Shown here piece by piece: positions 6,735 through 33,306 of a stretch of DNA of 33,306 bases. Within the stretch, counting starts at the first letter, position 1. Every line of letters starts with the position of its first letter. A model generated the notes under the pieces. It was not told the DNA's origin. It ran no database searches and saw only the letters and a list, made by a program, of their open reading frames with translations. The stretch is taken from IMG/VR virus record IMGVR_UViG_3300001751_000006, positions 1 to 33,306 of that record; one strand, given 5' to 3'. The translations under genes and the position numbers were made by a program. Source of the stretch: a virus (lineage: Duplodnaviria; Caudoviricetes).

Positions 6735-7082
6735 CTATATCTTTATACTATCATCAATATAAGTAGCTACACTTCCTTCTACTTCCTCTACATCAACTTG
6801 ATAACAGCTGTCAAACTGCATGCAGATCCAATGAGCTATATTTTCTGCAGTTGTATTCACATCTCCAAATATGTCATTTAAGTAATAGTGATCAAGTTTA
6901 TCCTGAACTTGATTCTTTATTAGTGTGAAATCTATAACCATGCCATTCTTATCAAGTTCATCTGCTTGACAATAGACTGTAATTTTCCAGTTATGCCCGT
7001 GCTTCCTCTGACATTTACTTTCATAATCTAAATTGAGTTTATGTGATGCAGATACTATAAATGTTTTCTTTATTCTATACAT
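6735..7082 (-). CDS. queD: 6-carboxy-5,6,7,8-tetrahydropterin synthase
   Basis: SASHKL, CxxxHGHNW, IDF, LDHYYLN and TTAENIA motifs. Confidence 0.9.
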   Translation of the reverse strand: MYRIKKTFIVSASHKLNLDYESKCQRKHGHNWKITVYCQADELDKNGMVIDFTLIKNQVQDKLDHYYLNDIFGDVNTTAENIAHWICMQFDSCYQVDVEEVEGSVATYIDDSIKI

Positions 7083-10334: not shown

Positions 10335-11573
10335 CTATCTATCCCCTAACAATATTTTTCTTGATTCTTCTGTAAGCTTAATTCCACATGATGGGCAAAC
10401 ATCAAGCTTTTTCTTAAGATTCTTTTCCTCAAGCTCTAACTGCTCTAACTGCTTATCAATATCACTAATCTTAGATTTAGTATTGTGAATTTCTTCAAGC
10501 AACTTAATTGCTGCTTCAACCCTTCCATATATATCATTATACTTTACTAAAACGGATTTTCCAGAAGAAAGTACCTTCTCAAGATTCTCTGGAAGAGATA
10601 CTTTGCCCTTTCTAATCTGCTTTATTCTATTTAATAAGCCTCCAAGCTTTGATATGCTTTCTGATAATCTAATTGCAGAACTAGAATACTTCTCTAGCTT
10701 AACAAATGTTTGATCAAGATTATCTGGAAGAGTTATTCTATGTGACACAATCTCTTTTATCTTATTTATTAAACTACTAAGATGCAATGTTTGAGATGAT
10801 AATTCAACTACTAAATTAGAATGCTTTTCAACCTTAACAAATATTTGATCAAGATTATCCGGAAGAGTTATTCTACGACTCTCAAGATCCTTAAGATTCG
10901 TTATGATAGACTCTATCCGGCTTATTTTTTCTTTTATTTTCTCAATTTCTATCAAGTTATTCTTTGCCGCAAGTATCTTGCTCTCAAGCAACTCAAGATT
11001 TATTTTGTTTAGAATAACGAGTTCATCATTAGTAGAGTTAAATTCTTCTTGACAATGAGATATCTCATTCTTTTTCGAGCGTATCTTACTTGACAATAAT
11101 TTAACAGCTCTATCTATCTCATCCAATTTTGTTATAGATCTAATATATATAGCAACTTGTCCAGCAGGAGAATAAACAAGGAAGTACGGATCTCGTTGCT
11201 TCTGAATATTTATATCAGTCAAATTTAATATATCTGAAACATCTTTAGGTGGAGAAATACTTGCATTGAATGGATCAACTATTTCTAATCCATCCTTTTC
11301 TACAACATATACATTTTCAGACTTATTCCGCCTTCTAACTATACTACATGCATTTTCATTGTCAACAACCTCCATAGTTGCAATGCAATCACTTTGCCCT
11401 CTCCTTATACACCCATTGCCCCGTGGACGATTATCAACTATCCATTTCATAGCCAATAGGATATTTGTTTTGCCGTGCCCAGTATCTCCCGTAATAACAT
11501 TTATTCCAGGTGAGAATTTAAGCTCGGTCTTCTCATGAGTTTTGAAATTTTCTAATGTAAGTTTCTTGATCAT
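10335..11573 (-). CDS. sbcC: SbcC/Rad50-like ATPase, N-terminal half
   Basis: LENFKTH, Walker A GDTGHGKT, Q-loop NIQKQ, coiled coil and terminal zinc-hook CPSC. Confidence 0.85.
   Translation of the reverse strand: MIKKLTLENFKTHEKTELKFSPGINVITGDTGHGKTNILLAMKWIVDNRPRGNGCIRRGQSDCIATMEVVDNENACSIVRRRNKSENVYVVEKDGLEIVDPFNASISPPKDVSDILNLTDINIQKQRDPYFLVYSPAGQVAIYIRSITKLDEIDRAVKLLSSKIRSKKNEISHCQEEFNSTNDELVILNKINLELLESKILAAKNNLIEIEKIKEKISRIESIITNLKDLESRRITLPDNLDQIFVKVEKHSNLVVELSSQTLHLSSLINKIKEIVSHRITLPDNLDQTFVKLEKYSSSAIRLSESISKLGGLLNRIKQIRKGKVSLPENLEKVLSSGKSVLVKYNDIYGRVEAAIKLLEEIHNTKSKISDIDKQLEQLELEEKNLKKKLDVCPSCGIKLTEESRKILLGDR
10579..10875. repeat. Three degenerate 135-bp (45-aa) tandem units in the SbcC coiled coil
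   Basis: cttaacaaatRtttgatcaagattatcYggaagagttattcta at 10698-10740 and 10833-10875; third partial copy at 10579-10597. In protein: ITLPDNLDQ twice plus VSLPENLEK. Confidence 0.85.
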
Positions 11574-17090: not shown

Positions 17091-19757
17091 TTACATAGCA
17101 AGAATAAAATCTTCTAGTTTAACTTTCTTTTTATCCACTTCAACAAACTTTCCCTGCTCATTTATTACAATAGAATTCATATTGTACCAATTTTTGCCAA
17201 TCTCCCAATCAACTCCAAGAGGAATTCCTCTTTGCCATTCATAGCGTTCTGAGCACATTATCTCAGTAACTACATCAATTAGTTCATTCAATTCCGAAAT
17301 TACAGCATCAAACAAAATAGAATCATGAACCTCACCATTGGCAAATGACTTAAATTTTCTTCTTGCAAATTCTTTTTCAATTCTAATCAAACTATCAAGA
17401 AGAAGATGAAATGATGTTCCCTGAATTAGGTTATTGAATAACTGATTGATAGATAATGGCCCAATCCGCCTCCAACCATTAAGTGCTTCCGCGTATCCAT
17501 CCTTCAAGTAATCATGTATTACCTTATTTTGCCATTCTTTAACATAATGATATTCTTCCCAGAATTCTTTCTGAACTTGAATTATATGATCAGTAGGAAC
17601 ATCAGGAAAAGATCTCGCAACATTCCTATCTATAGAACCATAGAAACTTGGAAATACAAATCCATTCTTTCCTTTATATCTTTCATCTTTAGTCACATAA
17701 TCTACAGATTTTGTATAAATCCTAGCTGTCCACCTATAATGAGTATCAAAAGGATTATTTCCACCATCAGGATGTTCCTCTGCCCATTTCTTACCTTCTA
17801 TAATTTGCCTGATAAGTTCTGGATCTCCAGAAAACATACCAATACCCTTAACCTCCATACCACTAAAGTCAACTTCCGGTTGGATTCTTCCTATAGATGG
17901 CACTATACTTTTTCTGAATACCATGAGCTCTTCATCATGTTTGAATACATTCTGGAGGTTTGGACTATCTGCAGAAGACCTGTATGTATCCGCCATATTC
18001 AAATTATAAGAAGGATGCACATAAAACTTTGAATCCATAACATTTCTATAGTTAGTAACTCTTTCAGTCAAACTACAAGTTTTTCTAAACCTAATAATAC
18101 CATTAACCAATTTTTTAACATCTTCATTTTTAGTTTTCTGGTATATAATACCCAAAGTTTCTTTATCCGTAGAACCCAAATGTGTTGCGGTCTCCTTGTA
18201 CTTTTCTATTTTGTAGATATCATATAGAATCTTTTGAAGTTGCCTTGTAGCAGATTCAGGATTAAAGGTATTACCTGATTCCTCTTCATATTGCTTAACA
18301 CCACGAAGCGACCTCATCTCTTCTATTCTAAGCTCTCGCTCAGCTATGTATTTATTATCAAGCTCATGAAGTACATCCATATCTATTCGATTTCCTCTCT
18401 CCCTCAAGTTTACCAAAACTATTGCTCCTTCATGATAAAATTCATAAAATTCTCTCAACTTTGGATTTGCATCAAGAAATTCTTTCTGGTCATAGTAAGA
18501 CATTAAAGTATATCTTGAATCCCAGCTATTGTAATTACAAATTTTCTCTAATGACTCTGATAGCAACTTTTTAACATCCACTATTCCCTTATAATCATGA
18601 CCAGTTAGCATAAAAGCCTGAAAGCCTAAACTAGTTGTACTCGAGTTATTATTGATAACATGAGCTGCGATCATTGTATCATGAATAATATTCTTCGCTG
18701 GTTGGTTTAAAAACATCCTATTCCATATCTCTTCCATGTTGACATTCTGAACTATCTTTGGAGTATCACTTCTCAAAAACTCTCTCCAGGCACATAGTAT
18801 TCTTTCCTGTTCTTGAGAATTGAAAATTATATCTCCGTTATCATATTTCAACTTCAAAGGAATAAATACTCCAGAACTTATGTCATTAGATATTGATATT
18901 GCTAACAAATCCGCACCTTTTACCCAAGGATATAAAGCAGTAGTTTCATAGTCAAAAGAAGTTGGTTTGTTTGTATTACAAAAACTTCTGATATGTTCAA
19001 TAGCTTCATCAACATCAGTAATACATTTGTTCCCTTCCTCAGTTAAAGGTTGTGGGAGAGGTTGATCAAGATATGAAATTATATTTGCCAAATCGTAGCC
19101 AAGAATAATTTCATCATCTGGATATTTATCTTTCTTCCTTTTTCTGTATCTGAAGAAAGCTGGATGATAAGAACATCCAACCCAGCAGTTATATTTATGG
19201 TATGGAACAACTTTTCCATGCATTTGATTAGCAGTGAAACCTTTTAAATACTGAGTTTCCAAAACAGCATTTATAGCTGGAGTACCTAAGCATATAATTA
19301 ACTTAGGTTTGGTCTCTTCAATATCTCTAATCAAACGTTCTCTACAGCATTTAATTTGATCCTTTGTAGGATCTTTGTCATCACCTTTCGAGTTTTGTCC
19401 TGGATAACACTGAATAACGTTTGTCCTTTCACAATCCTCATCCATGTCTATTCCAATGTATCCAAACATCTTACGTCCAAGAACTCCAGATGGGCCAACT
19501 AGAGGAATTCCTTCTTTATCCTCCACTCTTCCAGGGCACTGCCCTACTATAAGAATTCCTTTCTTTCCACTCCCAAACCTTTCCATTTTAGGGCTTCTAC
19601 ATTTTCTATAGAGTCCACAGGTAGAGCAATCATATATTTTCTTGCTAGATCTCTTCGCACCTGAACTTGATCGTTTCTTCTCAAACTTTTCAGGGTGCTC
19701 CTTTTGATAAATTTCCCATTTACTCAAGAAAAAAGCTTTTTGTTGTCGTTTTCCCAT
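17091..19757 (-). CDS. polA: Family A DNA polymerase with N-terminal uracil-DNA glycosylase (family 4-like) domain and 3'-5' exonuclease
   Basis: UDG: CSTC..C, IVGQCPG..ED..G.PLVGPSG, YHPAF. Exo: FDYETT, HDTM, YNSWDS. Pol: PNLQN, DFSGMEV, R...KNGFVFPSFYG, IQG, VHDS. Confidence 0.92.
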   Translation of the reverse strand: MGKRQQKAFFLSKWEIYQKEHPEKFEKKRSSSGAKRSSKKIYDCSTCGLYRKCRSPKMERFGSGKKGILIVGQCPGRVEDKEGIPLVGPSGVLGRKMFGYIGIDMDEDCERTNVIQCYPGQNSKGDDKDPTKDQIKCCRERLIRDIEETKPKLIICLGTPAINAVLETQYLKGFTANQMHGKVVPYHKYNCWVGCSYHPAFFRYRKRKKDKYPDDEIILGYDLANIISYLDQPLPQPLTEEGNKCITDVDEAIEHIRSFCNTNKPTSFDYETTALYPWVKGADLLAISISNDISSGVFIPLKLKYDNGDIIFNSQEQERILCAWREFLRSDTPKIVQNVNMEEIWNRMFLNQPAKNIIHDTMIAAHVINNNSSTTSLGFQAFMLTGHDYKGIVDVKKLLSESLEKICNYNSWDSRYTLMSYYDQKEFLDANPKLREFYEFYHEGAIVLVNLRERGNRIDMDVLHELDNKYIAERELRIEEMRSLRGVKQYEEESGNTFNPESATRQLQKILYDIYKIEKYKETATHLGSTDKETLGIIYQKTKNEDVKKLVNGIIRFRKTCSLTERVTNYRNVMDSKFYVHPSYNLNMADTYRSSADSPNLQNVFKHDEELMVFRKSIVPSIGRIQPEVDFSGMEVKGIGMFSGDPELIRQIIEGKKWAEEHPDGGNNPFDTHYRWTARIYTKSVDYVTKDERYKGKNGFVFPSFYGSIDRNVARSFPDVPTDHIIQVQKEFWEEYHYVKEWQNKVIHDYLKDGYAEALNGWRRIGPLSINQLFNNLIQGTSFHLLLDSLIRIEKEFARRKFKSFANGEVHDSILFDAVISELNELIDVVTEIMCSERYEWQRGIPLGVDWEIGKNWYNMNSIVINEQGKFVEVDKKKVKLEDFILAM

Positions 19758-20851: not shown

Positions 20852-21844
20852 CTAAAATAGCTTACTATCCACTCGTTTATTAGTTATGCCCTTTGGATAA
20901 AACTCATCTCTATAATCCAAAAAGGCATCAAAAAATCTAAAGTTAGCCTTAACTCTTTCAATAGATTCTGTTTCCATCTTTTTCACATCTATATCAATAG
21001 AATCAAAGTAGTTGTGAATTTTCTCTAAAGTTTCTTTATCCTCAGAGTACAAATGAGAATAGTGACCAGCTGCAGTATCCTTAACTTTGCCTATTTCAGA
21101 AACGCAAATACGCTTTGGGATTTTATCATAAGCGGCTTCACCAGTTTTAGGATCAAAAACAGGTACATACACTATTCCATAAGCTGCACTCTTTATCCAA
21201 TTAGTACTATCAACACTATGCCAGTTGTATCTTAGCATAACTGGAATAGACGTCAAACCAAAACCATGAATTTTAACATCTCTTCCACAGGAATTAACTA
21301 CTTTGAAAGCTGCGTCCCCAAACTTAGACATATACTTATAACTAAATAAACCTCCACTAACTCCACCTCCAAGAGCTATATAGTCATACTTCTCAACTAA
21401 TCTTTCTAAATACTTAAAATGAGCTTTTCCAACTTCTGGATCCGCTTGCTTTGTATGATAATGAAAAACTGGAAGAGGATTTAGTCCGGTGGCTTCCATT
21501 CGATTTTGCATAATCATAGTTTTTGCAGGATTGCCAACAAAATCTAAATTAGCATAAACATACAATCTATTCTCATATTTCTTAATAAATTCAATATAGC
21601 TATCTAAATAAGTAAGCTCATCTGCCTCAGTAACAACTTTTCCCTGCATAGTCATCTGATGATCCCAACTATATGCTCCAGAATCTAAGAAAATCTTAAA
21701 CGTAGGATATCTCTCAAATGCTTTTTCCAACCTAGCCCTATACCAAAATGACTCGAGAGTATAAACTTCTCTTTTCTCAAGCATCTCCATAAGTTCAGGA
21801 TATGTCATACCATAATTAGCAACACCAGCCTGATATATTCGCAT
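20852..21844 (-). CDS. dpdA: DpdA-like / tRNA-guanine transglycosylase-fold protein (putative DNA 7-deazaguanine insertase)
   Basis: LESFWY, IFLDSGAYS, ANLD.VG, LPVFH, YIALGG, KIHGFG and SVDSTNW; adjacent to the queC-like gene. Confidence 0.7.
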   Translation of the reverse strand: MRIYQAGVANYGMTYPELMEMLEKREVYTLESFWYRARLEKAFERYPTFKIFLDSGAYSWDHQMTMQGKVVTEADELTYLDSYIEFIKKYENRLYVYANLDFVGNPAKTMIMQNRMEATGLNPLPVFHYHTKQADPEVGKAHFKYLERLVEKYDYIALGGGVSGGLFSYKYMSKFGDAAFKVVNSCGRDVKIHGFGLTSIPVMLRYNWHSVDSTNWIKSAAYGIVYVPVFDPKTGEAAYDKIPKRICVSEIGKVKDTAAGHYSHLYSEDKETLEKIHNYFDSIDIDVKKMETESIERVKANFRFFDAFLDYRDEFYPKGITNKRVDSKLF

Positions 21845-21863
21845 AGTCTGCTCCTACATCAAT

Positions 21864-22832
21864 TCAAATTATTCCATTCAAATCAATAGTTTTATCATCA
21901 ATTATCGCATCATATTGAGGCTTTCCAAGCCTTAACTCATCAAACTTAACACAATTAACTATCAGCCAATCTCTAGTAGCTTCTTCATCTTCAGGAAATC
22001 TACTAGACCATAAAACTATTTTATTTCCCCGCTCGTGTAATTCATTAACTTTAGCTATGTTTCTCAAGTTTGGAGTCCTACTAAAGTAATCATGTCCTTC
22101 AACTTCATTTGTAAGAACTCCATCAATATCTACAAAGTAAACTTTCCTCTTCTCAATTTTTAGATATTCCTCAACTGCTCGAATAATATTTTCATTTCTC
22201 TGGCGGACATATATTCTTTGCTTAGCTCTTTCATAATATTCATCAAGAAGATTTCGATTGTAGAAGTCAAGTTTAATCCCATTCACCCATAAAGCAACCC
22301 ACTTTCTAAAGCAACACCTACACTTGTAACAACAATAGCCAGTGCTAAGATCGTAGCAACTACCTGTTCTAATTAGCTGATCTAGAGCTTTGCCTTCATT
22401 TCCAACAGTTGCGAGATACCATCTGACTACATCAGCCTTTGTGTAATTCCAAAATGGGCTCAAAACTTTAATTCTTCTCTCATTCAAATTTGATAGCATC
22501 CCAGAAAATTCAGCAAAAATTTCTTCATTCTTATCATTCACTTTATCATCTTTAAGGCCCGCCATATATATCTCATCTCCATATTTGCAAGCAAGCATAG
22601 CAAAATACAAATTTCTCATTGGAAGAAATTTTGTATCAGAGTCAATCTCTCTCGTTGATAAGTCTATAGATTTATCCACAATCACGGGAACTCCAAGTTC
22701 TTTGATAACTTCAAGTTCCCTATCACAGATGTCAAGACCAATATGAAAGTAAACTGCCTTTGGCTTCTTAAGAAAATGCCATGCTATAAACGAATCCATT
22801 CCACCACTAAATAAAAGTACTTTCTCACTCAT
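21864..22832 (-). CDS. queC: QueC-like PP-loop ATPase fused to a C-terminal HAD-like phosphatase domain
   Basis: LLFSGGMDS, LPMRN, SPF...KADVV, SCY...CYKCRCC; then FVDIDGVL, LWSSR and GKP....IDDK. Confidence 0.8.
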   Translation of the reverse strand: MSEKVLLFSGGMDSFIAWHFLKKPKAVYFHIGLDICDRELEVIKELGVPVIVDKSIDLSTREIDSDTKFLPMRNLYFAMLACKYGDEIYMAGLKDDKVNDKNEEIFAEFSGMLSNLNERRIKVLSPFWNYTKADVVRWYLATVGNEGKALDQLIRTGSCYDLSTGYCCYKCRCCFRKWVALWVNGIKLDFYNRNLLDEYYERAKQRIYVRQRNENIIRAVEEYLKIEKRKVYFVDIDGVLTNEVEGHDYFSRTPNLRNIAKVNELHERGNKIVLWSSRFPEDEEATRDWLIVNCVKFDELRLGKPQYDAIIDDKTIDLNGII

Positions 22833-23143: not shown

Positions 23144-23506
23144 TCAAGATTTGATTTGTTCTTCTTCATAAGCTTCAATTAAATTTTTTAACAATCGCCG
23201 ATGGCACTTCTCATCACCATGCTCAAAGCAAAGTAAAGTTATTACTTCTCCACTTCTTGCCCTATTAGCTAACTCTCTAATTCTTCTCTGAGCGTGATGT
23301 CCTCCCATTAACTGAAAAAACTGAACCACATACTCATCCCAAGATAGTCCATGATATTTGTAATCATACAACAATTTCTTCGTAGGAGCCAGTTCAGGAT
23401 AGTACTCATCAAAAGAACAATCTGGAGGAACTCCTCCTGATACTACTATTCGAGTTCCATCAGACTCTTCAACTGGATCAAATAAAGATTTAGTCTTGAT
23501 CATCAA
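23144..23506 (-). CDS. DUF488/YeaO-family protein
   Basis: DGTRIVV, ELAPT, WDEY, ITLLCFE and CHRRLL. Confidence 0.8.
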   Translation of the reverse strand: MMIKTKSLFDPVEESDGTRIVVSGGVPPDCSFDEYYPELAPTKKLLYDYKYHGLSWDEYVVQFFQLMGGHHAQRRIRELANRARSGEVITLLCFEHGDEKCHRRLLKNLIEAYEEEQIKS

Positions 23507-24272
23507 ATCTCAAAAAATCTATTACTTTTTCTGGGAATTGCTCAAAATTTCTTCTCAAGATATTCTCAAGAGCATAATTCCAATCTCTTTTTTGCTCTGG
23601 ATTGAACAAATGCCAAGCAATAGCATCAGTTCTTAAAATTCCTCTACCAGCAGCTTTACTCAAAATAAAGTCTTCTAATGGAGCATCATCTGGAAGGTCT
23701 TTTAGTGCTACCAATAATCTATTCTCAACACCATATCTAAATGCTACTCCACTGGCTCCTCCATAGTCAATCTCAATGAATTGAGGATGATCATATCTAA
23801 AAAATGCATATTGATATTGTGAAACATCATCAGGAGGATTTTTGTGCAAAGTAGTAGAAAAATCAGGTTTCCCGATTTCATTGTTCGGAAGGAGAAACAA
23901 TCCACAAGAAAAATTAACTGGTAGACTTTGATCTGCCTTCAAGCGAAATCCTAAAGAATGCCTAACCTTATCAATATAATCTGGCTCAAGCAAAGCATCA
24001 TCATCAACAAACATAAAATCTTGAGTTACTTTTTCAAGCAACTTCCTTCTAGCTGCAACAATGGAATTTCTTTTATTTTCTCTAAAGTAAACTATTTCAA
24101 CATGTTTCTCAGATAAAATATCAAAAACCATACGAACTGTGAAGTTTGATGTAATTGGTTTTTCTCCACTATCCAATATAGTAATCCTATCAGGAAGTTC
24201 TGTTTGATAAGCCAATGCCTGAAGGCAAAGAGCTATAGTATCAGTACGAATTGTTGGTACAAGAATTTCCAT
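23490..24272 (-). CDS. Glycosyltransferase family 2-like (GT-A fold)
   Basis: ILVPT, L..L..QT..PDRITILDS, DxD motif FVDDD, and ED...H. Confidence 0.75.
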   Translation of the reverse strand: MEILVPTIRTDTIALCLQALAYQTELPDRITILDSGEKPITSNFTVRMVFDILSEKHVEIVYFRENKRNSIVAARRKLLEKVTQDFMFVDDDALLEPDYIDKVRHSLGFRLKADQSLPVNFSCGLFLLPNNEIGKPDFSTTLHKNPPDDVSQYQYAFFRYDHPQFIEIDYGGASGVAFRYGVENRLLVALKDLPDDAPLEDFILSKAAGRGILRTDAIAWHLFNPEQKRDWNYALENILRRNFEQFPEKVIDFLRFDDQD

Positions 24273-24458
24273 TTACATTCCTCTTGGTTCTGTTTCCCAC
24301 CTATTCCACAATGTCACTATATGTTTTGCATTATCATAATCTTCTAATGTCAGATCATCATCAGCAATAATTTGTGCTACCACTTTGCCATCTTCAGCAG
24401 ATATTTCAAGACAATTGAGTGACACCTTCTCAAAAGATACTACTCCAGAAGTTTTCAT
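24273..24458 (-). CDS. Small hypothetical protein
   Basis: AAGGAG RBS before MKTSG; NAKHIVTLWN tail common in phage small proteins. Confidence 0.6.
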   Translation of the reverse strand: MKTSGVVSFEKVSLNCLEISAEDGKVVAQIIADDDLTLEDYDNAKHIVTLWNRWETEPRGM

Positions 24459-24583
24459 TTCTTTCTCCTTTAAAAGCTGAACCACCACGTCTTTTTATTG
24501 AATTAAATGCCGCCACGACCATACTGTAAATTTATACAACCTACTGTAATCAATGTACTATACATCTCCATCACTTTGTTGGG

Positions 24584-24709
24584 CTAACCTCCAAATATCC
24601 TGTTTATTAACAAAAGTAAAGCAGGTTTAAGATAAAGAAATATCTTCATAATCTGCTCACTAGCTAGTACACCAAGAACTACTCCAGTTAGTAAATAAAC
24701 GAATCTCAT
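24584..24709 (-). CDS. Small membrane peptide
   Basis: GAGGAG RBS; MRFVYLLTGVVLGVLA is hydrophobic. Confidence 0.5.
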   Translation of the reverse strand: MRFVYLLTGVVLGVLASEQIMKIFLYLKPALLLLINRIFGG

Positions 24710-24710
24710 A

Positions 24711-25712
24711 TCACTCCTCACTTTGATGGGAGAACTTCTTCTTCCCCAGTTCAGCTTTATTTTCCAAGGCATACTTATTTGTTTCAAGCATGTGGTCCCA
24801 AGCACAACCTGGGCACGTTGATATCACTTCTTTGAAGTTTTGATAAATCTGCCCAGGATATAGAGGTATATCAAAAATACTAAACGGCTTAGACAATGGT
24901 CTATCTATGCAGGCCATTAAACTTCCATCAGGATTCACTGCTGGGCAAGCCCATTCACTACAATGCCAATTTTGTTTTATCCCAATAGTTGACCAATCTT
25001 TAAAGTAATCTTTCCCATTATGAAGCTTTAGTTCATCATAGTGTTCTATAAACCATCCAGCAATTCTTGAAACCATCCATCCATCACCTACTTTGAATAC
25101 TAAATCTTTATTGTCCTCATCAACTGGCCCACGATACCACCAATACATAGCCTCCCTCTGAGAGCAAACATGAAAGAAAGATAAAATACTCCATATACCA
25201 AGATTTGTAAAATATTTGACCATTTCTGGAAGTGCTCGAATATTCTCTCGAGTTACTGCCATATTTGCTACTAAATCCATATCTGAAGCATCCTTTGTCA
25301 ACTTAAGAAGTAGATCATGTCCTACATTACTCTTTTTCTGGTCACCAAACTTAACATCTATTGGGATTATATGATTTACAGAAGCGCTTATTCCAAAAGG
25401 TTTCGCATCTAGTAATTCTTTATAGAATTTCTCATCCTTCATTAACCTAACTCCATTGGTTATGATAGTATGAGGCATATCAATCTCATTGAGATATCTA
25501 ACTAACTTAGGGAGATCATCTCGCAATGTTGGCTCTCCTCCAAAGAGGACAACAAAGCCAACTTTGTAGTCTTTCATAATATCAAAAGCTTCTTTCCATT
25601 GCTCAGTAGTCATCTCATAAGCTGATTGGAAGTTTATAACATTACATCCTCTGCATCTAAGATTACACCTTCTTGTGAGAAAAACACACGTTTTTTGCCA
25701 TTTATCAAACAT
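24711..25712 (-). CDS. Radical SAM enzyme with C-terminal Cys motif (SPASM/twitch-like)
   Basis: CNLRCRGC, FGGEP, ITNG, C...C..VNPDG...AC and CPGC. The likely start is ATG 25712 after GGAG. Confidence 0.85.
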   Translation of the reverse strand: MFDKWQKTCVFLTRRCNLRCRGCNVINFQSAYEMTTEQWKEAFDIMKDYKVGFVVLFGGEPTLRDDLPKLVRYLNEIDMPHTIITNGVRLMKDEKFYKELLDAKPFGISASVNHIIPIDVKFGDQKKSNVGHDLLLKLTKDASDMDLVANMAVTRENIRALPEMVKYFTNLGIWSILSFFHVCSQREAMYWWYRGPVDEDNKDLVFKVGDGWMVSRIAGWFIEHYDELKLHNGKDYFKDWSTIGIKQNWHCSEWACPAVNPDGSLMACIDRPLSKPFSIFDIPLYPGQIYQNFKEVISTCPGCAWDHMLETNKYALENKAELGKKKFSHQSEE

Positions 25713-25780
25713 GTTCAGCTCCAATAAGTAAATCTACATATTTATTATACTTACATTAGCAATCAATTATAGAATTCATA

Positions 25781-28482: not shown

Positions 28483-28758
28483 TCAATCAACTATTAATGG
28501 ATAATCAGCAGCTAAGTCATCAATATCAGATTCTCCATCTATCCATTGACGTGCATCTAAGGCGGCCATTAAAACGTTTTGCGCTTCCGATTCAAATTCG
28601 TATTCTATTTCATCATTTTCCATATCTTCTTCAAGGACTTTGATCTGGGCATCAATAGCATCTAAATGGCTATCGCCAAAAGCACTATATGGACGAACCT
28701 TTTCTTGAATTCCCCTTAATGCTTCAATTTGCTGTTCTACTTCTTTTTGTGTTTTCAT
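28483..28758 (-). CDS. Hypothetical protein
   Basis: AGGA RBS; acidic helical 91-aa ORF. Confidence 0.6.
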   Translation of the reverse strand: MKTQKEVEQQIEALRGIQEKVRPYSAFGDSHLDAIDAQIKVLEEDMENDEIEYEFESEAQNVLMAALDARQWIDGESDIDDLAADYPLIVD

Positions 28759-28768
28759 CTTCTACTTC

Positions 28769-29341
28769 CTATCTAATTTGACTTGTAACAACATTCACTT
28801 CTGGATTATTCCAACAGTAAAAGTTACATTCCTCACAATTATCATGACATACAAAAAACTCATCAGAACCTGAAGTACCTTTTATTGCAGCCTGAGGAAA
28901 AATTCCAGAATGCTTTCTAGTGTTATCAGTAGATTCTCTAACTACTACATTCTTCGGAAAAATATGTTTCATGTACTTTAAGAAATTAATTCTTTTAGTA
29001 TTAGTTCTAAAAATGATATGAGGAAATCCTGCAGCAATGTATGCCCATTTATCAATATACTCTTTACTGTAAAAATCTCCTGTTATATGTATTCTAACAT
29101 ACTGTATTGATTTCCTACGAGCTATTTCATCTATCATCCTAGAAGCAAAGTTTTTCTTCAAGCTTTGCTTATATCTCCACTTGGCAGCTTCTTTTACATT
29201 CGACCATAGAAACCTTCCCTTCAGAGCATAGCAATTCTCTTTACACCAAGAAGAGGGATTGCATGTAAGCAAAGGTGGAATGTTAAAAATTCCAACAGAA
29301 GAAGGCATTGTCAAATTACCAGCAATCAGCAATTTCCTCAT
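28769..29341 (-). CDS. Gp88-like phage protein (Cys-rich, radical-SAM-like)
   Basis: GN.., FNIPP..TC......C...CYA, RIHITGDF and C..NC..C..CW. Start MRKLL at 29341 follows GAGGAGG. Confidence 0.7.
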   Translation of the reverse strand: MRKLLIAGNLTMPSSVGIFNIPPLLTCNPSSWCKENCYALKGRFLWSNVKEAAKWRYKQSLKKNFASRMIDEIARRKSIQYVRIHITGDFYSKEYIDKWAYIAAGFPHIIFRTNTKRINFLKYMKHIFPKNVVVRESTDNTRKHSGIFPQAAIKGTSGSDEFFVCHDNCEECNFYCWNNPEVNVVTSQIR

Positions 29342-29360
29342 TAGTATCCTCCTCAATACT

Positions 29361-29422
29361 TAAAAACCAATGGCGAGAAGTAATGATTTTATAGGAACTT
29401 CCTTTGCCATGCATGGTTTTTA
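29361..29422 (-). ncRNA. Conserved hairpin motif, copy B (putative cis-regulatory RNA or protein-binding RNA)
   Basis: UAAAAACCA-UGC-AUGGC-AAA-GGAAGU-UCCUAUAAAAUCAUU-ACUUCU-C-GCCAU-UGGUUUUUA; shares an exact 19-mer with 31382-31400. Confidence 0.6.
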
Positions 29423-31327
29423 ACTCAATAAGTTTAGTATACTATCCCTTTCTATTTTTTCTAGAGATAAGTTAATATCACATTCTTCCTCATCTTCCAC
29501 TATTTCTGCATCAGATAAAAGAAGTATTTCATTCAAGCTGATAGTATCTGTGTAAAAATCCGTTAAGTACTGCATAGCATTTTCTATCATCCTTGATGCT
29601 CTTGAAGTAATACTCATTCCTATAAGGCTCTCTGAGAAATAAAATCTAAGATCTTTGGATGTTGTTACTATACCTAATATCTTTTGAGGACTATCAATCT
29701 TTGATTCTATAGAACAAACAATATCATTTGGATCGATAACATAATTCTTACTAAGCGTTCTAGGCTGATGCTTTGCTACAATAATTTCAAAGGGCACTTC
29801 TTGAGGAGAATAATTAAAATAGTTAACCATCAATATTCCAGGAGACTTTAGAGATCCATACAAATAGAATAACTCTGAAGCACCTTTTGGTCTGGGAGCA
29901 TTTGTTACATCTCCAGAGAATAAAATATTTTTTCCACTCGATCTATATTCACCATCCCAGCCGTACTTCATACCACCTACAGTTATTAAAGATAAATCTA
30001 GATCTACTCTTGATGACTCTCCACGTCTGCCCTCATGATTAAACCAGTGAACTCCAAAAACCATACTATCTTGATCTATAGTCAAATATGTCCCAGAAGG
30101 TAAGTTTCCAGTAAACTGTTTCTCTGTAGCTGGAAGTGCATATTCAACACTCTTTGGAAGATAAATTTTCTTATTAGCAACATGTTTGTTAATATCATAA
30201 ACAATACTTCCAAGAACCACTTTTAGTATTTCATCTGACTTAGCTTTTACATGACTATCATAAGAAATCTCTTCAGCCCAACTCTTCCCATTTCTTATTT
30301 TATAAAGAATTGAGCTAACATCTTTTGTTCTGTACTTCAAAGCATAAGCCAATCTTATCTTCCTAAAAGTATTTACTCTTCTCAGCTCACGACTTAATTC
30401 AGTTACTGATATTGGCTCTCCTCTCTTAATCATAGAGGTAACTTCATTAAGATAATCCTTTTTCATTGGTTTGTGATGCTTCTTAGATAGCTTACTAATC
30501 TTGTTTATAATTAAGACGCACTGCCCTGATTTAAGTGCCAAGAACAGTGGCTTAAATCTATTAAAAATTCCTGCTAGATTTTTCAAGCCATATTGCTCTT
30601 TATACTTCTGAAGCAAAAAGAAAGCTGGTAGTTTATCTGCTGAAGTAATTTTCTCTATGATTTCACCACTTTTAATTAGTAGAGTTTCGTTAATAGTTCG
30701 ATAAAGAACAAACCTTAAAAATTCAAGAGGATCTTCTGGAAGAATATCCAAGTAATCATATAACTTAATTCGAGCCTCTTTATTTTTTACCTCTTTCACT
30801 TCCTTAGGGGATATTCCAGCAAAGACACATATTTCAATAATATAATTGAATGTGTCTTCCTTCAAAGCAATGCCAGAAGAAAGCATTTTTAGTGCTTTTT
30901 CTTTTAGTTCTTCTTTTGTGTATCCCTTGATAACAACCAACTTTATACTATCTAGTTTTGGAGAGATAGTGAGTTCTGGTATATCAAGTTGCTCGTTTGG
31001 AATATACACAGAATCTTCATTATATACTCCCAACGCCTCAAATCCATAAGTAGTAAAATAATGAAGTATCTGCTCCAACACCAGTTGAGTTATATGTGCA
31101 TTTCTCACTTTTTTCCAAGATTTATGAAATGAGTTGTTCAACTGAGCTGGCGTCCGTCCAATATCTTTAGCTATCTTAAGCAACTCTTGCTCTGGATAAT
31201 TCGCCACAACTTCAGGAGAGAAGATAAATCCTCTCGGAATAGTCGCTTCTAATAAAGAGCGTTCCGCATCTTTTTTCTTTTTATTCTGTATTGGTAATGC
31301 TCTAAAAAGTTTAATTGTTGCTTCCAT
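29420..31327 (-). CDS. 635-aa protein with helical N-terminus and C-terminal TerD-like domain
   Basis: PATEKQFTGNLPSGT, FGVHW, RVDLDLS, GWDG, FSGDVTNAP and GASELF. Confidence 0.65.
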   Translation of the reverse strand: MEATIKLFRALPIQNKKKKDAERSLLEATIPRGFIFSPEVVANYPEQELLKIAKDIGRTPAQLNNSFHKSWKKVRNAHITQLVLEQILHYFTTYGFEALGVYNEDSVYIPNEQLDIPELTISPKLDSIKLVVIKGYTKEELKEKALKMLSSGIALKEDTFNYIIEICVFAGISPKEVKEVKNKEARIKLYDYLDILPEDPLEFLRFVLYRTINETLLIKSGEIIEKITSADKLPAFFLLQKYKEQYGLKNLAGIFNRFKPLFLALKSGQCVLIINKISKLSKKHHKPMKKDYLNEVTSMIKRGEPISVTELSRELRRVNTFRKIRLAYALKYRTKDVSSILYKIRNGKSWAEEISYDSHVKAKSDEILKVVLGSIVYDINKHVANKKIYLPKSVEYALPATEKQFTGNLPSGTYLTIDQDSMVFGVHWFNHEGRRGESSRVDLDLSLITVGGMKYGWDGEYRSSGKNILFSGDVTNAPRPKGASELFYLYGSLKSPGILMVNYFNYSPQEVPFEIIVAKHQPRTLSKNYVIDPNDIVCSIESKIDSPQKILGIVTTSKDLRFYFSESLIGMSITSRASRMIENAMQYLTDFYTDTISLNEILLLSDAEIVEDEEECDINLSLEKIERDSILNLLS

Positions 31328-31340
31328 AAGTATTCCTTTC

Positions 31341-31406
31341 TAAAAAATAGCGGGAAGTAATAATCTCCAGTAGATATTTTTTAGGAACTTCCTTTGCCAT
31401 TTATTT
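31341..31406 (-). ncRNA. Conserved hairpin motif, copy A (putative cis-regulatory RNA or protein-binding RNA)
   Basis: AAAUGGC-AAA-GGAAGU-UCCUAAAAAAU-AUCU-ACUGG-AGAU-UAUU-ACUUCC-C-GCUAUUU-UUUA, directly before the RBS of the 635-aa gene. Confidence 0.6.
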
Positions 31407-31427
31407 GCAAGGGAGATGAAGAGTAAA

Positions 31428-31730
31428 TCATTCATCTTGGATTAGATCATTAGGAACTCTTTTTATCTCCCCACTAACTACTACCTCAAGAAGATGTAAT
31501 TCTGATTCTTTATCAAAGCCATCACGCAGTATTCCAGAAACAACTGCTGGAACTCCATCATATTGCTTATAATCTTCAGGTAACCAAAAATGATTATCGG
31601 CTCCATCCCAAGCAACCATTATTCCAGAACCATAGTCTTCATCAATAACTCCTTCTGTACCTTTTGGAACACCACTAAAAGCTACAAGACTACGAATTCT
31701 CGTACCAACTTTTGCTTCTTCAGCTTTCAT
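31428..31730 (-). CDS. Hypothetical protein (SH3-like beta protein)
   Basis: VGTRIRSL..FSGVPKGTEGVIDEDY...VAWD. Confidence 0.6.
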   Translation of the reverse strand: MKAEEAKVGTRIRSLVAFSGVPKGTEGVIDEDYGSGIMVAWDGADNHFWLPEDYKQYDGVPAVVSGILRDGFDKESELHLLEVVVSGEIKRVPNDLIQDE

Positions 31731-31890
31731 TTTTGAATGCTTTAGTTCTCTTACAATTTTTACAAGTCACATTTTTACGCCAAGAAGTAAAACACTTAAA
31801 AAAGGAACTGCTAAGATCATAATAACCACAAGCAGCGACTCTAGCTGAAAAGCCAAAAAACGTTTTACTTATTATAAAGTGTTTTTTCAT
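31720..31890 (-). CDS. 56-aa putative Zn-binding protein (not in ORF track)
   Basis: MKKH...ACG...VTCKNCKRT, an H/C/CxxC pattern common in small phage proteins. Confidence 0.6.
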   Translation of the reverse strand: MKKHFIISKTFFGFSARVAACGYYDLSSSFFKCFTSWRKNVTCKNCKRTKAFKNES

Positions 31891-31892
31891 AA

Positions 31893-32084
31893 CTAATCCA
31901 CATTATCGCAGTTTGTTATTTCTTCTTCATCGATTCCCATTTCATCGGCGAAGGTTTCTATGTTATCGGTTAAGCAAACGATATTTCCATTATCAATGTG
32001 TTCTTGTATATTTTCCATTCCATCTTCGACGCTATCAATAGTTAAGCTGTACCATTTGCCTGATAACTTGACTAAACTAAACAT
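31893..32084 (-). CDS. Small acidic hypothetical protein
   Basis: AAGGAG RBS upstream (the start may be two codons earlier); D/E-rich. Confidence 0.55.
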   Translation of the reverse strand: MFSLVKLSGKWYSLTIDSVEDGMENIQEHIDNGNIVCLTDNIETFADEMGIDEEEITNCDNVD

Positions 32085-32123
32085 CTCATTGCTCCTTTTC
32101 TATAATTGGTCGCTATCTTTCCA

Positions 32124-32606
32124 TTACATAGCCCTTGGTTTTAGACTCAACCATTCCTTCCATTCTCCTCTCATTGGAATTGGCCTTGGAACATCTTTAC
32201 CAATTCCTAACTCATAATCCACTCCCAATTCCCTACCTATTCTTCCGCCACCACTATATCTAGTATTACACCCAGCTAATGTAATAAACTTATGAATACC
32301 ACTTTCTTTATATCCAGCCCTAATCAACATCCTTATAAAATTAAGCAGTTCCGTATTGAATCCCTTCTCAAGTAAATCTGATAGATTTAACAAGTCTCTA
32401 ATATATTGAATAATCTCTATATGAGCTGTCAAATCTACTTCTGCTGGACCTCTGTCCCATTTTTCTGAGCTAATCAAGTTACTACTTCCACACTTACAAG
32501 GAGCGTATTTGATCTTTGATCCCCCTCCATGAACTTCAAATATTTCAACCTTCTGATTACATTTTCCACATCTCATTTTATCAAGCTTTATCTTGAGGCT
32601 TTCCAT
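32124..32606 (-). CDS. Hypothetical protein with N-terminal zinc ribbon
   Basis: GGAG RBS; CGKC...CKCGS. Confidence 0.6.
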   Translation of the reverse strand: MESLKIKLDKMRCGKCNQKVEIFEVHGGGSKIKYAPCKCGSSNLISSEKWDRGPAEVDLTAHIEIIQYIRDLLNLSDLLEKGFNTELLNFIRMLIRAGYKESGIHKFITLAGCNTRYSGGGRIGRELGVDYELGIGKDVPRPIPMRGEWKEWLSLKPRAM

Positions 32607-32672
32607 TCTTATCTCCAGTTTCTCCTGAACAAAACCATTTTGTTAAAGCTGATCTAGCTCGCATTAACCACT

Positions 32673-33146
32673 TCATCCTGACTTAACTCCATCCCAATTC
32701 ATATTCTTCACCCAGCTCTTAGCCTTCCCTGTTGCTTCTTTTTCGCTCTTTCCAGCATCAGCATATTTATTAGCTACCTCTTGAACAATTTCCTCATCAC
32801 TCTTTCCCTCTGACTTTAGCTTTCTGCACATAATAGCCAATCCCTTGACTCGAGAGGATATTGTTCTTTTTTGCTTTGATTCACTAGTATCACTTACCAC
32901 TACTTTCTTCTGTGGACTCGAAACTTCGCTGTGCTTTTCATATAAGAGTTTAGTATCACTAACTACTTTAGGAGGAACAAATATAGTTTCTCCAGCTCCG
33001 TCAACAAGCACTGATGTGCCCATAGTAATATTTGACTCTCTAGTGCACTTCTTGAATAGCTCAAGATTAGAAGCTTTACAATTCTGGCACTTTGCTTTCC
33101 CTTCCCTCTCAATAGTTCTAACTCCAAAGAATTTACAATCATTCAT
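32673..33146 (-). CDS. Hypothetical protein with N-terminal Cys motif and basic helical C-terminus
   Basis: AAGGGG RBS; CKFFG...CQNC...C. Confidence 0.6.
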   Translation of the reverse strand: MNDCKFFGVRTIEREGKAKCQNCKASNLELFKKCTRESNITMGTSVLVDGAGETIFVPPKVVSDTKLLYEKHSEVSSPQKKVVVSDTSESKQKRTISSRVKGLAIMCRKLKSEGKSDEEIVQEVANKYADAGKSEKEATGKAKSWVKNMNWDGVKSG

Positions 33147-33197
33147 TTAAATCCCCTTCAATTTTACCAACGCGTTGTATCACAAGCTGGATCTGGG

Positions 33198-33305
33198 TTA
33201 CCGCTCTAATATCTTTTGTAGCCGCTCATTCTCCTCATGTAGCTTTTCAATTTCATGTTCCAATGATTTTATTATGTTTCTTTTTTGGTCTCTTAATTGT
33301 GATAT
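33198..33305 (-). CDS. Partial coiled-coil protein (starts beyond the window)
   Basis: Open frame ISQLRDQKRNIIKSLEHEIEKLHEENERLQKILER*. Confidence 0.5.
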   Translation of the reverse strand: MSQLRDQKRNIIKSLEHEIEKLHEENERLQKILER

Positions 33306-33306
33306 T

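Follow-up and report, generated by a model that had tools for sequence, protein, structure and literature searches.

The window, by which the whole analysed stretch of 33,306 nucleotides is meant, represents a 33-kb virus record, whose replication, recombination, terminase and deazaguanine genes are all encoded on the minus strand. It is a one-piece assembly without differences in two sequencing runs (X1 and X4), from which this DNA may derive. A gene for a 635-residue protein is accompanied in the window by three copies of a predicted RNA helix, here called the handle. The features of this region are as follows.

31428..31730, minus strand: 100-aa ORF, function not assigned; its 3' end extends into handle copy 1
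31410..31472, minus strand: handle copy 1 (predicted RNA), directly upstream of copy 2 and missed by the initial annotation
31344..31403, minus strand: handle copy 2 (copy A of the initial annotation), with its 3' end ~17-20 nt ahead of the ATG of the 635-aa gene
29420..31327, minus strand: 635-aa gene, member of a large unnamed protein family and putative partner protein
30077..31327, minus strand: N-terminal part of the protein (residues 1-417), basic (pI 9.5) and for the most part helical, without a recognised fold
29564..30076, minus strand: TerD-fold domain (residues 418-588), a predicted-structure match
29360..29423, minus strand: handle copy 3 (copy B of the initial annotation), with its core at 29413-29367 and a long outer stem
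28769..29341, minus strand: GP88-family gene (PF17338), after handle copy 3; adjacent in this genome but not conserved with the system

The 100-aa ORF has no counterpart in the fetched homologue loci and is therefore not a conserved part of the system; among the same loci, the GP88-family gene adjoins a homologue of the 635-aa gene only in L085. This 179-kb contig (JAHQJS010000001.1, binned as Candidatus Borrarchaeum) holds the closest relative of the 635-aa protein, with 72% identity, and has three neighbouring genes in common with the window. Because it is syntenic with a virus, the contig may derive from a virus of an Asgard archaeon, or may be mis-binned with one. Other homologues of the protein are present in Promethearchaeota bins.

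Several further features of the window were observed in passing. At 17091-19757 (minus strand) a family A DNA polymerase is fused to an N-terminal uracil-DNA glycosylase domain, and the fusion adjoins a DNA polymerase III beta-type clamp and a clamp loader. A likely deazaguanine DNA-modification set at 6735-7082, 20852-22832 and 23490-25724 (minus strand) comprises QueD-like, TGT-like, QueC-HAD fusion, glycosyltransferase and radical SAM genes. A 108-nt direct repeat with 76% identity (10662-10904), located in an SbcC-like gene, is probably a coiled-coil coding repeat. A small ORF of ~56 codons with cysteine pairs, read by eye, lies at 31725-31895 (minus strand) between a 63-aa and the 100-aa ORF; a fourth motif-like stretch inside it was rejected as a handle copy.

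The initial annotation started from a 19-mer at 31400-31382 and 29410-29392 (minus strand). The repeat is exact and occurs nowhere else in the window at up to three mismatches, with a mean chance expectation of 0.01 and not one of 100 shuffles giving two. Copies 2 and 3, which contain it, fold as drawn (minus-strand z-scores of -2.0 and -4.6), the two differences in their 3' arms are indeed C/U exchanges opposite G, and the outer stem UAAAAACCA/UGGUUUUUA is present. The arms AUCU...AGAU of the inner hairpin proposed for copy 2 are likewise present, but RNAfold did not pick that hairpin. The motif had been described as having two copies, whereas a third is located at 31472-31410, directly upstream of copy 2. 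This copy 1 comprises an outer stem GGGGAGAU/AUCUCCCU, the AAA/C internal loop, an inner stem AAGAGU/ACUCUU and UCCUA...UUU, and it overlaps the last codons of the 100-aa ORF. Both of its stems are altered with compensation (GAGAU/AUCUC and AAGAGU/ACUCUU), and the unusual GAGAU/AUCUC stem is retained in the first copy of L085. Copy 3, the outer stem of which overlaps the stop codon of the 635-aa gene, is missing in L085, where both upstream copies are present. Two copies of one locus rarely share an identical 19-mer (4 of 246 within-locus pairs), so copy 3 probably arose by recent duplication of copy 2.

With a strict descriptor, the window yields the three copies and 50 shuffles yield none. 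A covariance model, the training set of which included all three window copies, scores copy 2 at 58.5, copy 3 at 42.0 and copy 1 at 40.9 bits, with a next best value of 9.4. Rfam 15 yields no match in the window at gathering score and nothing over the copies at E-values up to 10; the initial annotation, too, could not assign the motif to a named RNA family. The window copies represent the minimal form of the handle, which is shorter than 60 nt and has no tRNA insert, and their U-runs mostly belong to the 3' arms of the outer stems.

To characterise the family, 158 loci were fetched around homologues of the 635-aa protein; this gene-first set is partly de-replicated, and its viral part consists of the best 80 of 135 loci. 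The consensus reads GGC-AWA-NNNNGU-UCCU(A)-variable insert-UAC-NNNN-C-GCC. In an alignment of 97 sequences, 97.6% of the cells are paired, and double-sided changes number 286, against 78.4 in shuffles (none of 500 as high) and at most 61 with slid partners. As this alignment had been selected using the motif, two less biased pairing tests were run. When the 3' arm is picked by sequence alone, Watson-Crick pairing holds at every one of the four variable pairs in 210 of 259 copies, compared with 4.4% for random partners. Within single loci, a comparison that controls for relatedness, full pairing is found in 179 of 218 own-copy and in 37 of 498 other-copy arm combinations. Fold energy by itself does not support the claim of an RNA on the transcribed strand, with -19.9 kcal/mol for copy 3 on the plus strand versus -20.1 kcal/mol on the minus strand. 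Support for it comes from the family as a whole, in which 65 G-U stand against 11 A-C pairs, favouring an RNA on the sense strand. Hits in the gene-first loci, with the viral part again the best 80 of 135, are distributed as 338 sense, 18 antisense and 5 inside the gene. Sequence comparison thus supports the handle as a conserved, covarying and strand-specific RNA-like structure. An Rfam scan of 20 related loci matches only tRNA, and no description of the handle RNA family was found in the literature searched; in the accessible portions of PMC7824862 and 10.1101/2021.07.29.454249, the viral genes named are solely true Ro60 or Ter genes.

The handle is tightly linked to the gene family of the 635-aa protein. 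A descriptor hit ends within 300 nt of the gene in 121 of the 142 gene-first loci with at least 300 nt of upstream sequence (viral loci being the best 80 of 135), and several of the 21 loci without such a hit were recovered by the covariance model. The arrays contain 1-8 copies. The two-sided flanking seen in the window, which the initial annotation had taken as the key feature, is not general: an upstream array is the norm, a downstream copy within 300 nt is present in only 8 of 146 loci, and the closest relative (72% identical) has none. One of the eight is cyanophage S-CRM01, with three copies upstream and one downstream of its homologue and no fifth hit in the whole 178-kb genome. Conversely, an exact pattern scan gave a motif-first set of 98 cellular and 44 viral loci, Chryseobacterium accounting for 61 of the 80 named cellular ones. 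The protein gene is found in 88 of the cellular and 38 of the viral loci, always on the same strand. The ten cellular misses have flanks of only 300 nt; three short cellular loci were followed up, and the gene is present in two of the genomes and absent from L243, a 2.1-Mb genome with the motif. Among the six viral misses, three have the gene ~13, 20 and 29 kb away on the same record and three are fragments, 9-28% complete, without a protein match. The association of RNA and gene is hence not only cis, as the three distant viral arrays demonstrate. In phage Phass-1 (L004:6100-6700) the gene is followed, at a distance of 1.3-1.7 kb, by an array of six copies, which directly precedes a sequence resembling the 5' end of tmRNA. 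The handle RNAs are a real, widespread and uncatalogued family with a dedicated protein family.

The inserts enclosed by the handles range from short loops and hairpins to YrlA-like permuted tRNA modules, and in addition whole tRNA bodies occur in which the handle replaces the anticodon arm. Plain inserts are found in 227 of 258 forward copies; of the others, 18 were flagged for both a T arm and a D arm, 11 for a T arm only and 2 for a D arm only; about 12 of the 18 are true permuted tRNA modules by eye, the rest being mis-pairings between neighbours. Two inserts of L058 match positions 23-88 of the YrlA model with 36.8 bits (E 2.4e-6), below the 69-bit cut-off. In three viruses (L051:2057-2190, L054:2304-2440 and L057:2307-2440) the permuted tRNA insert has an additional conserved hairpin element in the loop of its acceptor stem, GCTGTACG...GCCCACCC...CGTGCAGC. 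The second topology follows tRNA order, i.e., acceptor, D arm, handle with reversed arms and a short closing loop, T arm, acceptor, and has no normal anticodon loop; 20 of 21 permuted hits lie between a D arm and a T arm. There are 74 distinct tRNA-order matches in 300 loci, 67 of which have an acceptor stem of 6-7 bp, 10 of them ending in CCA; about half come from Chryseobacterium. Rfam labels such RNAs as tRNAs of 99-134 nt. Since the handle survives circular permutation, the helix itself is the conserved unit, as would be expected of a protein-binding handle.

The 635-aa protein matches no entry in Pfam or PHROG. Of 8000 candidates scored, 2709 match it, and the family comprises 1711 clusters at 50% identity, mostly viral, while many bacterial chromosomes also encode both handle RNA and protein. 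The AlphaFold2 model (pLDDT 91, pTM 0.89) confirms the earlier TerD assignment at the level of predicted structure for part of the chain, residues 418-588, which adopt a TerD beta-sandwich fold; the invariant residues D442, D444, G472, D473 and E485 align with the TerD acidic motifs. Residues 1-417 form the candidate RNA-binding part, and invariant residues of the family include H89, Y90, Y94, N182 and E184. The TROVE/Ro connection suggested at the outset was not found for the protein itself: TROVE gives no hit for 14 members at E-values up to 1, a profile comparison with a small 5-sequence TROVE alignment yields an E-value of 0.52, and a vWA domain is absent from the C-terminus. As there is no TROVE sequence relation, the case for RNA binding rests on co-occurrence and on the basic N-terminal part.

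Among 108 neighbouring ORFs from 39 loci, a Pfam search identifies RtcB in three loci (within 2.5 kb), band-7 in two and a CCA-type nucleotidyltransferase in one; Ter genes are found neither among these ORFs nor in the window, which also contains no RtcB gene and no tRNA. By tblastn, RtcB is present in 74 of 300 loci, nearly all Chryseobacterium, plus L006, L096, L099, L186, L194 and L275. In L138 (2141-2420) and other Chryseobacterium loci the order rtcB, tRNA-order handle RNA, forward handles and gene is conserved. tRNAs are called in 20 of 80 viral loci (the best 80 of 135), 13 of them with at least three calls, some of which are the tRNA-order handle RNAs themselves. In S-CRM01 and S-CBWM1 the protein gene lies within tRNA clusters.

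Of the roles considered in the initial annotation, a ribonucleoprotein is the best supported, and nothing points to a toxin, as the antitoxin option would imply. We regard it as on the whole probable that the handles are protein-bound sites and that the units are small RNAs in a Ro60/Y RNA-like particle for RNA repair or tRNA-centred conflict. The array would be transcribed together with the gene, and cutting or folding would give individual units. Recognition of the AAA/C loop and of the invariant GU-UCCU / UAC junction would fall to the basic helical N-terminal part, the inserts would be displayed to further factors (RNA ligase, nucleases or translation components), and the TerD domain may sense a ligand or metal. 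Several observations weigh against a ribonucleoprotein: most copies (227 of 258), including all three in the window, have no tRNA insert; most RtcB neighbours come from one genus, Chryseobacterium, which also dominates the named motif-first cellular loci; the window has neither RtcB nor tRNA; the protein shows no TROVE sequence relation; L243 has the motif but no match to the protein; 21 gene-first loci have no descriptor hit within 300 nt upstream; and anticodon-loop-like heptamers in the spacers are only mildly enriched. A more far-reaching version is possible, but doubtful, namely an independently evolved counterpart of Ro60/Y RNA in large bacterial and archaeal viruses, in which a new RNA-binding fold holds exchangeable handle-tagged RNAs as a programmable cargo library serving RNA repair or counter-defence; the library would consist of tRNA mimics in two circular permutations, anticodon-loop-like inserts and hairpin inserts.

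The position of the arrays bears on another mode of action. Among 99 loci where an array is present and the start is known, 65 have no more than 45 nt, and mostly 15-30 nt, between the last copy and the start codon, so that free protein would be placed for repressing its own translation, a plausible side role of a ribonucleoprotein. This placement, shared by copy 3 ahead of the GP88 gene, is equally what a cis-only operator array would display, with the protein repressing translation via leader handles and no RNA leaving the mRNA. The invariant UUCCU could then pair with a downstream AGGA, which follows within 40 nt in 34 of 65 terminal versus 26 of 147 internal copies; however, any ribosome-binding site is expected to give such an excess, and UUCCU is retained in copies without a gene behind them. 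Autoregulation alone is the weaker explanation, as it accounts neither for arrays of up to eight copies with differing inserts and complete tRNA-like bodies nor for arrays downstream of the gene (L004, L020 and L145) or 13-29 kb off, and we consider a cis-only role rather unlikely. The inserts themselves might serve as decoys, with the protein stabilising tRNA- or anticodon-loop-like structures that sequester the anticodon nucleases or tRNA sensors of the host in infection. The mostly viral family, the location of the gene in the tRNA clusters of S-CRM01 and S-CBWM1, and the recurrence of tRNA bodies and of CUGUUAA and CUUGAAA-like loops among the inserts agree with this. Yet anticodon-loop-like heptamers in the spacers are only marginally enriched (77 of 227 versus 55 shuffled, maximum 76), the tRNA-order form has no normal anticodon loop, many bacterial chromosomes encode the system and the window inserts are no obvious anticodon mimics, which leaves a decoy function distinctly improbable.

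The tRNA-order handle occupies the position of a tRNA intron, and handles could be substrate sites, where the protein, or a host enzyme recruited by it, would cleave or splice the transcript at the internal loop during maturation, as an intron-like anticodon-arm insert would require. The recurrence of the RtcB ligase nearby would fit, and the invariant H89, Y90, Y94, N182 and E184 could be catalytic; with no nuclease fold matched in the 635-aa protein, most copies outside tRNA bodies and, by eye, no consistent 7-nt anticodon loop in the permuted examples, we think this very unlikely. Least credible, with hardly any weight in our judgement, are protein-independent terminators, attenuators, a riboswitch or a DNA-level repeat. 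The window hairpins are followed by U-rich sequence and an exact 19-bp direct repeat surrounds the gene, but a terminator scan of 28700-33306 returns no site, at least five T in the next 8 nt follow only 61 of 258 copies, and copies also occur in arrays, within tRNA-like RNAs and far from the gene. The linked gene is always the same one and never a metabolic gene. Compensatory changes and the G-U bias argue for RNA rather than a DNA element, and no contig joint deleting the 635-aa gene is present in the four sequencing runs examined.

Comparison with known systems places the ribonucleoprotein reading beside Ro60. According to the part of 10.1101/312249 available to us, Ro60, Y RNA and RtcB are co-encoded. 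As far as the sources consulted in part describe them, Ro60 (Rsr, TROVE) with YrlA/YrlB (RF02553) resembles the handle system in having several same-strand small RNAs beside a large protein gene (within a few kb), a terminal bulged helix conserved across the RNAs, occurrence in phages and bacteria, a permuted T-acceptor-D tRNA module, found in some handle members, and RtcB as a recurrent neighbour. There are also differences. The terminal helix of bacterial Y RNA carries GNCGAAN0-1G on its 5' strand (Chen et al. 2014, PMC4201824, in the excerpt seen), whereas this sequence occurs in none of 258 handle arms and both handle strands covary; no handle RNA match reaches the cut-off of the YrlA model. 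The protein has a TerD domain in place of vWA and no TROVE sequence signal, the arrays reach eight copies, and in the second topology the anticodon arm of a tRNA-order RNA is where the handle stands. The b7a-tRNA (Burroughs and Aravind 2016, known here through part of 10.1101/312249) is a tRNA look-alike adjoining RtcB; its name, as given there, stands for band-7-associated, and band-7 genes neighbour 2 of the 39 handle loci scanned.

On the protein side, the MXAN_6230/SCO0854 RING family (NF041916, Prok-RING_4) gives a weak profile match to residues ~405-515 in 14 of 14 members (E 4e-9 to 0.12), and its predicted structure matches the 635-aa protein over the full length with a TM-score of 0.63. 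The members nevertheless score 10-35 bits over one short stretch, far below the 600-bit cut-off, and have no RING domain; the handle was not found beside two SCO0854-like genes tested, and the literature searched holds no description of the function of that family. TerD tellurite-resistance stress proteins (PF02342; 2kxt, 3ibz and 2qz7) share the fold of residues 418-588, and their acidic residues are partly retained there. Identity is 12%, however, the 635-aa protein has no Pfam hit and an additional 417-residue N-terminal part, and Ter operon genes occur neither among the scanned neighbours of the handle loci nor in the window. If the proposed ribonucleoprotein is correct, more than 1,700 protein clusters annotated only as hypothetical would gain a function, the TerD fold would be tied to RNA biology, and an explanation would be at hand for the phage and bacterial tRNA-like sequences that have odd anticodon arms. 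The system is carried by culturable Chryseobacterium strains and by cyanophage S-CRM01 and is thus directly testable. It would be categorically new if the N-terminal fold and the cargo-library role hold. Should the protein bind the handles, they would together constitute a second widespread tRNA-mimic ribonucleoprotein beside Ro60/Y RNA, with another handle and another protein.
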